From a virus: DNA of 39,407 bases. Position numbers and translations under genes: made by a program. The notes under the pieces are model-generated. The model did not search any database. It was given only the letters and a program-made list of their open reading frames with translations, and was not told where the DNA came from. Positions 14,054 to 37,957 of the stretch are shown here, piece after piece. The stretch's first letter is position 1, and each line of letters starts with the position of its first letter. The stretch is from IMG/VR virus record IMGVR_UViG_3300014962_000001, positions 1 to 39,407 of that record; one strand, written 5' to 3'.

Positions 14054-14995
14054 TTATTCGTAGAAGATGTTGATAGAACCATTATCAAAAGCAGCCGTAC
14101 CGGAAACAGTCGTAACACGAAGCCTAGTCAAGGCAGCAGACAAGGATTTCTTACCTGACAAAACAAAAACAGTAGGCACAGAAGGGTTCCCAATAGCTCC
14201 TGTTATGATCCATGTATTGCCTGTAATGTTTACAATGGTATAAACACCAGTATTATTAGCGGTAGAATCGTTATTTACTGTTAGACCAAAATAAGTAGCA
14301 TTAGCAGTCCCGCTATTTCCGTTATTTGCGTATGCATAACCTGTACTCTCAAACGCACTAGAAGTACCAAGCTGTAAAACAAGATCAGTATTAGCATTGA
14401 CAGATACAGTATCCAAGCAGACAGTAATACGACGAGCCCAACTAGGGATACCAGTAAACTCAATAGAAGTGCCGCTAGTAGAGGCTACTGCCGTTCCTCG
14501 TGTAAAAGGCTGAGAAAGTTTAGCAGGAGTGACACCAGAATCTGCAAGCTGCGTAGTACCAACACCACCGTTAGCAATCTTAGCTGCTGTAACATTTAAA
14601 TCTGCAATCTTAACAGTTGTAACGTTACTATCTGCAATTTTAGCAGTAGTTACATTGCTATCTGCAATCTTGGCAGTCGTTACGTTACTGTTAGCTATTT
14701 TTACAGTAGTTACAGCTCCGTCTTCAATCTGATCTGTACTAACAGTGTGTGCTGTTAGTTCTTGTTGGACAAAAGCAGTAGTAGCTAGTTGAGTGCTATT
14801 AGTCCCGGCACTAGCCGTAGGAGCAGTAGGAGTACCTGTGAAGGTAGGACTGACAATATCAGCCTTGGTAGCAACAGCGGTAGCAATGTTATTAAATTCA
14901 GTATCAATCTCAGTGCCCTTGACAATCTTTAAAGGATTGCCTGTAGCCAGAGCATCTTTACTGGCAAAGTTAGTGCTTTTTACGTATTCTGTCAC
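14054..14995 (-). CDS. tail fibre protein
   Basis: N-terminal fibre signature SPTFTGTPTAPTASAGTNSTQLATTAFV, followed by 10-aa repeats VTTAKIADSN. Confidence 0.65.
   Translation of the reverse strand: MTEYVKSTNFASKDALATGNPLKIVKGTEIDTEFNNIATAVATKADIVSPTFTGTPTAPTASAGTNSTQLATTAFVQQELTAHTVSTDQIEDGAVTTVKIANSNVTTAKIADSNVTTAKIADSNVTTVKIADLNVTAAKIANGGVGTTQLADSGVTPAKLSQPFTRGTAVASTSGTSIEFTGIPSWARRITVCLDTVSVNANTDLVLQLGTSSAFESTGYAYANNGNSGTANATYFGLTVNNDSTANNTGVYTIVNITGNTWIITGAIGNPSVPTVFVLSGKKSLSAALTRLRVTTVSGTAAFDNGSINIFYE
14515..14725 (-). repeat. About seven in-frame 30-nt repeats inside the tail fibre gene
   Basis: TCTGCAAT recurs at 14601, 14631 and 14661. The protein reads VTTVKIANSN/VTTAKIADSN x2/VTTVKIADLN/VTAAKIANGG... 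Confidence 0.8.
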
Positions 14996-28974: not shown

Positions 28975-29004
28975 CCTACAAAGCAAACCTACAAAGCAAA
29001 CCTA
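28975..29004 (+). repeat. 13-bp tandem repeat CCTACAAAGCAAA, about 2.3 copies
   Basis: 28975-28987 equals 28988-29000, followed by a partial CCTA. Confidence 0.85.
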
Positions 29005-30323: not shown

Positions 30324-30491
30324 ATGTATAAAATCGTTGAAAAATCTAATCCATTAGCCGTTCATTGTCTTTGTGACAGCCTAGAACGGGCACAGCATTG
30401 GGTTGACGTTAAAGCCGTGGAATACTGTCTTAAAGGTTATTTCATGGATAAGACGCTCACGTCTGAGTCTTTTATGATTGTGGAGGCATGA
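30324..30491 (+). CDS. hypothetical protein
   Basis: MYKIVEKSNPL...; the track start at 30306 is an alternative. Confidence 0.4.
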   Translation: MYKIVEKSNPLAVHCLCDSLERAQHWVDVKAVEYCLKGYFMDKTLTSESFMIVEA

Positions 30492-30685
30492 TGTACCAAG
30501 TACAATTCATCACCAGTGGCATTGTGGCGTTCAGCAGTCACGATAGAGGCCTCTGCACATACTTTATCGAGTGCAACAACTATGCACCTGATGTACCTGA
30601 GGTTGACCCTGACACAGGAGAGCTTACAGGATTGTGGCTCAAGGGCGATTGTTTGAATCTGTTTGTCTTAAGGAAAGTGAAATGA
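30488..30685 (+). CDS. hypothetical protein
   Basis: 65 aa; ATGA overlaps at both ends. Confidence 0.45.
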   Translation: MMYQVQFITSGIVAFSSHDRGLCTYFIECNNYAPDVPEVDPDTGELTGLWLKGDCLNLFVLRKVK

Positions 30686-30932: not shown

Positions 30933-31748
30933 ATGAAATTCAACGTAAAAAATAAACATATTTTTGATGGCGCACAGGTGTCAGGTAACGCACAAGTGTC
31001 AGGTAACGCACGGGTGTCAGGTGACGCACAGGTGTCAGGTGACGCACAGGTGTCAGGTGACGCATGGGTGTCAGGTAACGCATGGGTGTTAGGTGACGCA
31101 TGGGTGTCAGGTAACGCATGGGTGTTAGGTGACGCACGGGTGTTAGGTAACGCACAGGTGTTAGGTGACGCACGGGTGTTAGGTAACGCACGGGTGTTAG
31201 ATAACGCATGGGTGTCAGGTGACGCATGGGTGTCAGGTAACGCATGGGTGTTAGGTGACGCACAGGTGTTGGGTAACGCACAGGTGTTAGGTAACGCACA
31301 GGTGTTAGGTGACGCACGGGTGTTAGGTAACGCACAGGTGTTAGGTAACGCACAGGTGTTAGGTAACGCACAGGTGTTAGGTGACGCACGGGTGTCAGGT
31401 GACGCACAGGTGTTAGGTAACGCATGGGTGTCAGGTGATGCATGGGTGTCTGGTAACGCCTGGGTGTCTGGTGACGCACAAGTGTATGGTGACGCACGGG
31501 TGTCAGGTAACGCATTAATTGAAAAAACGAGCGATTACCTCCTAATAGGACCTGCCAAATCTTCTGGTCGATTCACAACTGCACATAAAGACTCTAAAAT
31601 TGGGGTACGTGTTAATTGTGGATGCTTTACAGGTACTGTAAAAGAGTTTTCAGATGCTATCGAAAAGACACACAAAGATAACAAAGAACATTTAGAACAG
31701 TATAGGATGTTCTGCCAACTGATCACCTTTAACTTTGGAGTCACCTAA
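30933..31748 (+). CDS. hexapeptide-repeat (predicted beta-solenoid) protein with a conserved C-terminal CGCF domain
   Basis: 31 consecutive G-[ND]-A-[QRW]-V-[SL] hexads, then LLIGP...VNCGCFTGTVKEFSDAIEKTH... I recognise this as a recurrent but uncharacterised phage protein architecture. Confidence 0.8.
   Translation: MKFNVKNKHIFDGAQVSGNAQVSGNARVSGDAQVSGDAQVSGDAWVSGNAWVLGDAWVSGNAWVLGDARVLGNAQVLGDARVLGNARVLDNAWVSGDAWVSGNAWVLGDAQVLGNAQVLGNAQVLGDARVLGNAQVLGNAQVLGNAQVLGDARVSGDAQVLGNAWVSGDAWVSGNAWVSGDAQVYGDARVSGNALIEKTSDYLLIGPAKSSGRFTTAHKDSKIGVRVNCGCFTGTVKEFSDAIEKTHKDNKEHLEQYRMFCQLITFNFGVT
30966..31523 (+). repeat. 31 x 18-nt near-perfect tandem repeat (coding)
   Basis: Unit GGTRACGCAYRGGTGTYA read directly from the sequence; 558 nt. 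Confidence 0.95.
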
Positions 31749-32002
31749 TGAAAGCAACTGTATACACCATTGAGGATGAATACTTAGGTATTCTATTGAC
31801 AGTCGAAGGTGAATTGGTAGAATACAATGCTATTGATGAACCGCCTTTTATTGTCATTCAAGAGATTTCACATGATGGAAAGCCACTAGAACTATGGTGT
31901 CTCAGTGAAGCATTCATCAAACACTGTCAGGATAGAATCTTTCAACAATGGTGCAGTGAAGTGTTTACACATAGTAAACTGAGGAGCAAGTCCAATGCGT
32001 GA
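31748..32002 (+). CDS. hypothetical protein
   Basis: 84 aa; ATG overlaps the preceding stop. Confidence 0.5.
   Translation: MKATVYTIEDEYLGILLTVEGELVEYNAIDEPPFIVIQEISHDGKPLELWCLSEAFIKHCQDRIFQQWCSEVFTHSKLRSKSNA
31796..31823 (+). promoter_or_regulatory. Intragenic sigma70-like match TTGACA-N16-TAGAAT
   Basis: 11/12 match to consensus, but it lies inside a CDS. Confidence 0.3.
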
Positions 32003-37872: not shown

Positions 37873-37957
37873 GCGAGTGTGGTGAAACAGGCAAACACAC
37901 TGGATTTAAAATCCAACGCCGTAAGGCTTGCGGGTTCGATTCCCGCCACTCGCACCA
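37873..37957 (+). tRNA. tRNA-Leu (anticodon UAA), type II with a long variable arm and encoded CCA
   Basis: Acceptor stem GCGAGTG/CACTCGC. T arm GCGGG-TTCGATT-CCCGC. Anticodon loop TT-TAA-AA. 85 nt. Confidence 0.9.

Follow-up and report, generated by a model that had tools for sequence, protein, structure and literature searches.

The window analyzed here is a stretch of viral DNA of 39,407 nucleotides (nt), positions 1 to 39,407 of IMG/VR record IMGVR_UViG_3300014962_000001, and appears to represent the whole genome of a podovirus-type phage. Its early arm carries a gene, referred to below as the solenoid gene (Table 1), that specifies a long run of near-identical hexapeptides (hexads) followed by a small globular C-terminal domain (C domain, or head) with a GCFxG motif. 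The product is probably a cytoplasmic, non-enzymatic, early accessory protein in which an evolvable solenoid stalk bears the GCFxG head, and which would be involved in host takeover or counter-defense. It is not a new kind of system, being an extreme member (31 units and no N-terminal domain) of a catalogued, uncharacterized phage family; the results that appear to be new are the hypervariable copy number of the hexads and the modularity of the head.

The array consists of exactly 31 units of 18 nt, all in frame with the surrounding open reading frame (ORF), as had been described in a previous reading of this DNA made without database searches (the sequence-only reading). Tandem Repeats Finder (TRF) returned window positions 30971-31514 with a period of 18, 30.2 copies, 88% matches and a score of 661. 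The degenerate unit GGTRACGCAYRGGTGTYA, allowing up to three mismatches, gave 30 consecutive matches within the array and none elsewhere in the 39.4-kb window, while shuffled sequences contained a mean of 0.17 matches and 0 of 100 shuffles reached 30. Variation is concentrated in unit columns 4 (A16/G15), 10 (C20/T11), 11 (G17/A13) and 17 (T15/C14), and the remaining 14 of the 18 columns are identical in at least 27 of the 31 units, which bears out the three toggling codons recognized earlier (AAC/GAC, CAG/CGG/TGG and TCA/TTA). Units 1 (DGAQVS) and 31 (GNALIE) are degenerate members of the array; one-off units gather at both of its ends, where most of the rare or synonymous variants (CAA, GAT, GCC, TCT, TAT) are also found. 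Judged by alignment, unit 31 is an anchored junction unit that lies outside the homogenization. When the units are written as types, the array reads GHIEEBCBCDADJKBCLAADAAAFMNOPQFR. The higher-order block proposed by the sequence-only reading, three GNAQVL followed by GDARV[LS] and seen twice, holds only approximately, since its first occurrence is GDAQVL-GNAQVL-GNAQVL-GDARVL. No clear super-period was found in the window array (identity 0.81-0.87 at shifts of 1-15 units), and its longest exact internal repeat is 53 nt.

The array was compared with those of relatives, which are syntenic IMG/VR contigs with the closest C domains (84-91% identical). They share an upstream small ORF with the window, and their primases and polymerases show about 80% and 76% amino acid (aa) identity, respectively. 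The numbers of hexads in their arrays are 4, 4, 6, 9, 10, 10, 11, 11, 17, 18, 18, 20, 22, 23, 24, 24, 26 and 29, and the 31 of the window are the most in the set. The suspicion that this is a length-variable locus is thus borne out, with copy number ranging from 4 to 31 across syntenic relatives and hence not constant in related genomes. The clearest pair is L007 and L015, which have 24 and 6 units, respectively, between flanks that are 97.5-100% identical and with the same head protein, and in which the orders of the units are unrelated.

The codons for glycine, alanine and valine are uniform inside each array and differ from one array to another. The window uses GGT, GCA and GTG; locus L004 has GGG (x29), GCA (x29) and GTG (x28), and L045 has GGC, GCG and GTC (x19 each), the sets seen between arrays being GGG/GCA/GTG, GGA, GGT, GGC/GCT/GTC and GGC/GCG/GTC. 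Most arrays vary at the same positions, with N/D, then Q/R/W/L, then S/Y/F/L. The second of these is encoded across arrays by CAG/CGG/TGG/TTG/CTG, Arg being nearly always CGG. Codons of the window array depart from the unit consensus synonymously in 2 cases and non-synonymously in 51. Codon use in the gene is also atypical of the genome: GCA makes up 31 of 34 Ala codons, GTG 30 of 35 Val codons and CGG 7 of 10 Arg codons, compared with 25%, 19% and 7%, respectively, in 18 reference ORFs, and the GC content of the array is 0.56 against 0.44 for the genome. Uniformity within arrays, differences between them and this atypical codon use and GC content point to concerted evolution. Exact multi-unit duplications of up to 126 nt occur in the arrays of relatives, and the range of copy numbers together with the codon use supports the duplication of single and multiple units, or concerted evolution, that had been proposed. 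Array turnover, in which one or several units are duplicated or deleted by slippage or unequal recombination, is shown to outpace the accumulation of synonymous substitutions.

The repeats matched the Pfam family PF18836 (B_solenoid_ydck) at 102 bits with a cut-off of 30 (E = 2.7e-30, 8 matched stretches), and the PDB entries of YdcK (2f9c/2pig), a structural-genomics protein and the only solved relative by sequence, at E = 8e-16. The PHROG matches were phrog_5070 (1.8e-97), phrog_7964 (1.9e-87) and phrog_20532 (2.3e-39, residues 179-269), the last of which spans the C domain, and all three are listed as function unknown. More than 7,500 homologues were retrieved. With three such PHROGs, this many homologues and no relevant paper, the earlier description of a recurrent phage architecture without an assigned function stands. 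The common layout of the family is a YdcK-like N-terminal domain (N domain) of about 50 aa, a hexad run of variable number and a C domain of about 75 aa. The N domain has the motif tlyRIRAL...GdlGGyiE.e.NLs, and its alignment with the YdcK_fam profile starts at about position 25. It is missing from the sub-clade to which the window protein belongs, and the latter has only 11 residues ahead of its first hexad; in relatives of the same sub-clade the leader has the consensus M..KNIKGKHI[LF]. Against NCBIfam NF040481, the YdcK equivalog, the window protein scored 68 bits with a cut-off of 350 (profile positions 57-198 of 326), and with this score and no N domain it would not count as a member of the YdcK family. 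A near-identity DNA search of the locus against GenBank phages gave no match, and neither did a search of Escherichia coli genomes with a Citrobacter homologue.

Enzyme models fared poorly. Pfam Hexapep (PF00132) scored 19.4 bits, under its cut-off of 27, and the NCBIfam models for LpxA, LpxD, GlmU, CysE and PaaY scored 16-30 bits against cut-offs of 160-600 (LpxA, 16 against 231). Residues 12-197 contain no His and no insertion or loop, all 31 units being exactly six residues long. Homologues carry acyltransferase-type labels, among them 'putative acyltransferase' (MW202674) and the JGI names 'carbonic anhydrase/acetyltransferase-like' and 'UDP-3-O-acylglucosamine N-acyltransferase', and these are not supported, given the sub-threshold scores and the absence of His, insertions and loops. 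The solenoid protein is thus non-catalytic by all of the sequence criteria applied. The hexads most likely form a left-handed beta-helix of about 10 coils with 18 residues per coil, and the earlier description of a hexad beta-solenoid joined to a non-repetitive C domain finds support in PF18836, 2f9c and the confident model of the C domain described next. In such a helix the V, G and A of each hexad would point inward and hence be fixed, and positions 2, 4 and 6, the ones that vary, would point outward, which would explain why variation is seen in exactly three codons.

The C domain was modeled with AlphaFold2 (AF2) at a predicted local distance difference test score (pLDDT) of 91.9, or 92 when rounded, and a predicted template modeling score of 0.81, as four short strands followed by two helices. 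In alignment A3 the G, C and G of GCFxG are invariant and the F nearly so, and in alignment A2 the C, F and G are invariant; across the family the domain also has nearly invariant T, F and Y residues and a His that is conserved in most sub-families. A Foldseek comparison of the model with the PDB found no matching fold (best E = 0.22, template modeling score at most 0.36), and C domains gave no consistent match to Pfam and have no Pfam family. The profile of the domain, searched against PDB sequences, picked up only MsrA, through its active-site motif GCFWG (E = 0.37); this is taken to be a chance resemblance, as the fold search gives it no backing. Among the predicted viral structures in BFVD the domain recurs at E = 1e-6 to 1e-3, in hexapeptide-type proteins from phages of Bacillus and Achromobacter and in proteins named pentapeptide-repeat.

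A full HMMER scan with the C domain yielded 515 representative clusters at 50% identity, and its context was examined in 149 newly retrieved best matches. At least four regular hexads are present in 95 of the 149, about 34 are short proteins that are hardly more than the domain itself, and in single cases the domain is preceded by pentapeptide-like repeats, by NSxM[YH] hexads, by Cys-rich repeats or by a helix-turn-helix. Since it is found alone and behind other repeats, the head is an autonomous, transferable module that behaves as a mobile one, and the solenoid is the exchangeable part. Individual proteins in which the C domain stands alone (72-90 aa) or follows other segments, CNxC Cys-rich ones among them, are P0227, P0231, P0135, P0140, P0157, P0246, P0232 and P0244.

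The genome is arranged in two divergent arms. The minus arm runs from 27.3 to 9.2 kb and carries terminase, portal and tail genes, and the plus arm extends from 29 kb to the end of the window and continues at 1-8.2 kb. Genes in the plus arm are ordered as small ORFs, the solenoid gene, further small ORFs, primase-helicase (33395), PolA (35969) and tRNA-Leu(UAA), and the arm also carries genes for PAPS (phosphoadenosine phosphosulfate) reductase, thymidylate synthase, ribonucleotide reductase (RNR) and PhoH. Pelagibacter podophages have primases about 50% identical to that of the window. The solenoid gene had been thought to close the early region, but several small ORFs still precede the primase, and with these ORFs, primase and PolA downstream of it the gene lies inside the early/replication arm and not at its end. 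Scans for promoters and terminators near the gene gave no excess over shuffles. The gene is accessory: among IMG/VR relatives with a primase 79-89% identical and enough upstream sequence, 8 of 55 have it. Most of the closest relatives by primase (L058-L136, 84-89%) are without the solenoid gene and have a homologue of the small ORF at 30488-30685, and its absence from most of them indicates recent gain or loss within the group.

Elsewhere the family is placed in the early regions of both lytic and temperate phages. In a Citrobacter lambdoid prophage the gene lies between cI and KilR/ERF, in another prophage it is followed, inside about 3 kb, by genes for N6_N4 methyltransferase, RusA and Lar, and in Streptococcus thermophilus phage Sfi19 it is orf229, directly upstream of the replication module. 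In SPO1-like Bacillus phages family genes are found at the genome ends. Liberibacter phage SC1 appears to have the family split over three small annotated ORFs (L137 2215-3062, gp140-gp150), which may be a decayed copy, and in Liberibacter prophages the family ORFs adjoin a repressor and a Bro-N antirepressor. The SC1 matches were considered as hypervariable hyv genes; they are fragmented small ORFs near a repressor, and the idea was dropped.

In the interpretation favored here, the head would be a specific interaction module that acts early in infection on a host or phage target, and the solenoid a length-tolerant, fast-evolving stalk or surface. Several points weigh against it. AF2 modeled the repeats poorly (pLDDT 33-76 for the monomer), so that the handedness, the number of coils and the oligomeric state are all taken from the homology with YdcK; the roughly ten turns of the sequence-only reading are accordingly consistent with that homology but gain nothing from the model. 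The inward and outward assignment of hexad positions is carried over from what is generally known of left-handed beta-helices. When the window array was inspected by eye, surface residues had no three-hexad (per-face) periodicity, so that no defined binding face is visible. Profiles from PADLOC-DB and of anti-defense proteins did not match the window protein or two homologues, and the literature searched on YdcK, PF18836, the PHROGs, phage hexapeptide and bactofilin proteins, anti-defense beta-solenoids and Sfi19 orf229 assigns no function to any member. The copy-number data all come from assemblies, mostly short-read metagenomes, in which some counts are possibly collapsed, and a passing bactofilin score (see below) would leave room for a polymer role. 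The full-length AF2 model gave nothing below E = 0.05 when compared with the PDB; the matches to antigen 43, P22 tailspike and ice-binding proteins have little meaning, as the repeat model is poor.

A more specific proposal is that the GCFxG head represents a novel effector fold of phages, one that neutralizes or hijacks a host factor such as a defense sensor, and that the solenoid is a contingency locus. Slippage and unequal recombination would then continually yield stalks of varied length and surface, by which the phage population could quickly track or escape a variable host partner, and sporadic presence of the gene, its early context and reuse of the head on other scaffolds would follow. 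We regard this as unlikely.

That the protein is a bactofilin-like, polymer-forming cytoskeletal filament in the infected cell is distinctly unlikely. Pfam Bactofilin (PF04519) does exceed its cut-off (34.8 against 27.9 bits, residues 115-195), Bp8p-T and Vibrio phage homologues have UniProt names such as 'polymer-forming cytoskeletal protein', and self-association could be promoted by the outward-facing side chains that are aromatic or hydrophobic (W, L, Y, F). However, this Pfam match is overlapped by PF18836, whose YdcK repeat model scores three times higher on the same residues, and the Foldseek match of the full-length model to BacA (2n3d) has E = 5. Bactofilin cores have a fixed length and disordered tails, and polymerize via exposed helix ends; here the length varies from 4 to 31 hexads and a globular domain caps one end (in most relatives both ends), and both features argue against a bactofilin.

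Variation in length, and possibly the count of 31 itself, could be an artefact of assembling a short tandem repeat, given that all of the arrays come from assemblies, many of them short-read metagenome contigs, and that exact internal repeats of 118-126 nt in some relatives could collapse or expand. This seems quite improbable. The 53-nt exact repeat of the window array is short enough for ordinary reads to span, so that it is in principle resolvable. The same array was recovered from different metagenomes, with identical hexad sequences in L007 and L009 and identical codon tallies in L012 and L014 and in L022 and L023, which argues against random mis-assembly. Close relatives also differ in the order and composition of units, beyond their number, and the isolate genome of Acidovorax phage AP1 has a long array of 23 hexads.

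It is very improbable that the protein is a hexapeptide-repeat (LpxA/isoleucine-patch) acyltransferase, as several database labels of homologues and weak, repeat-only matches to LpxA, LpxD and GlmU models and PDB chains might suggest, because those matches span only the generic V-x-G-x-A pattern at the sub-threshold scores given above, the array has no His, extended loop or substrate-binding insert, and 4-31 hexads in close relatives are unfit for a fixed active-site geometry. The sequence-only reading had named a match to a characterized acyltransferase as a finding that would speak against it; none was obtained, the enzyme models being far under their cut-offs. Hardly credible is the idea of a DNA-level element (iterons or an origin, a recombination hotspot, a CRISPR-like array, or the variable region of a diversity-generating retroelement (DGR)) in which the ORF is incidental: the 18-nt array is perfectly phased and close to replication genes, varies at a few fixed nucleotide positions as in targeted mutagenesis, and has counterparts with 'CRISPR_spacer' features in Vibrio phage records, but the frame is open through the array into the C domain with no internal stop in about 60 loci examined, the V/G/A pattern is conserved between Gram-positive and Gram-negative phages despite their different DNA, and there are no unique spacers. 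A DGR target was rejected separately, as the bases vary by A/G and C/T transitions, without adenine specificity, and no template copy is present elsewhere in the window; the 21 ORFs scanned had no PHROG match to a reverse transcriptase family.

Several known systems are similar to the window protein in part. YdcK of Salmonella and E. coli (2f9c, 2pig) has the same repeat type, and has the small N domain that is common to most phage homologues and absent from the window protein. It is a chromosomal protein of 326 aa whose coils are irregular and differ from one another, and which is without the GCFxG C domain, whereas the window protein has near-identical repeats, the head and no N domain; for YdcK itself, no paper that assigns a function was found. 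The homologues in Sfi19 (orf229)/SFi18 (gp229), Bacillus phages phiAGATE and Bp8p, Acidovorax phage AP1 and Caudoviricetes sp. MW202674 belong to the same family, with the three-part architecture, and like the window gene are found in early regions near replication genes, but they retain the N domain and have fewer and less uniform hexads. Streptococcal homologues have a divergent head (W.VGCFYG) with no conserved His. The acyltransferases LpxA, LpxD, GlmU and serine acetyltransferase have the hexapeptide periodicity in common with the window protein, a hydrophobic residue recurring at every sixth position and a small one at i+4, and the fold class is probably the same; their catalytic residues and loops are absent from the window protein, whose stalk is variable in length.

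Pentapeptide-repeat proteins (Qnr, MfpA) provide an analogy as repeat rods that act by binding and not by catalysis, and the same C domain stands behind pentapeptide-type repeats in some phage proteins, although the repeat length and helix geometry are different from those of the window protein. As the latter is not strongly acidic, DNA mimicry is not indicated. The intragenic-repeat contingency genes of bacterial surface proteins are likewise homogenized, change rapidly in copy number and have more diverged units at their edges; unlike those surface antigens, the window protein is a cytoplasmic early phage protein and has no known phase-variation phenotype.

This very large family spans phages of Gram-negative and of Gram-positive hosts, lytic as well as temperate. 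These results narrow the search for its role, in that the stalk is no enzyme, its length is evolutionarily free and the small C domain is the conserved, transferable part. The arrays offer a clear-cut case from nature of concerted evolution within a gene of a virus, and could serve as strain-level markers for this phage group. Mis-annotation of family members is routine: they are recorded as an acyltransferase, as a glycerol kinase, as CRISPR spacers or as an antisense ORF. The 'glycerol kinase' label occurs in Streptococcus Javan prophage records, and 'CRISPR_spacer' features lie under the tblastn match to arrays in Vibrio phage records H61, H63, H66 and H67. In Acidovorax phage AP1 an antisense ORF is annotated in place of the solenoid gene (L002 2464-3024), and Sfi19 orf129 is a spurious ORF overlapping the array gene (L057 5092-5481).

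Table 1. Features of the solenoid gene and its surroundings, in window coordinates.
Feature	Position	Strand	Description	Basis or remark
Solenoid gene	30933..31748	+	271 aa + stop	ORF list; PF18836 and PHROG matches
Leader	30933..30965	+	MKFNVKNKHIF, 11 aa	Position of the ~50-aa YdcK-like N domain in most homologues
Array	30966..31523	+	31 in-frame 18-nt units, G-[ND]-A-[QRW]-V-[SL]	TRF, unit alignment
Last, degenerate unit	31506..31523	+	GNALIE	G[DN]A[QL]IE terminates nine related arrays
C-terminal globular domain	31524..31745	+	74 aa	AF2, phrog_20532
GCFTG motif	31620..31634	+	G230-C231-F232-T233-G234	Hallmark of C domain, alignments
Antisense ORF	30940..31515	-	191 aa, through array	ORF list
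Downstream ORF	31748..32002	+	84 aa	ATG overlaps solenoid-gene stop (TAATG, 31746-31750)
tRNA-Leu(UAA)	37873..37957	+		Just after PolA; outside the element

The antisense ORF that runs across the array is an artefact, owed to the absence of stop codons from the repeat, and not a gene. The overlap of stop and start codons suggests that the solenoid gene and the 84-aa ORF may be translationally coupled; no homologue of the latter was found in related loci by tblastn.

The solenoid gene has 16 TTA codons (59 per 1000), making it the densest in TTA of the ORFs examined, and TTA is the codon that the sequence-only reading had connected with the phage tRNA-Leu(UAA). An Rfam scan found the tRNA only. 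Both observations hold, with the TTA codons and the tRNA present, but a causal link does not: TTA in the array is the C-to-T neighbor of the TCA Ser codon, and relative L006 has the same tRNA at the same place and zero TTA in its array. At the same codon relatives have TCC/TAC/TTC or TCT/TAT. The density of TTA per 1000 codons differs by arm, with 0 in primase, RNR and PhoH, 3.5 in PolA and 21-45 in many structural genes; this distribution suggests that the tRNA may serve late-gene translation.

TRF also reported a second tandem repeat, with a period of 30/60 nt, about 4 copies and 77-81% matches, at window positions 14574-14730, which falls in a minus-strand ORF of 313 aa (14054-14995) in the structural arm. 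A perfect 13-nt repeat, CCTACAAAGCAAA (x2.3), is found at 28975-29004 between the two divergent arms, and could be a regulatory or origin-related element.

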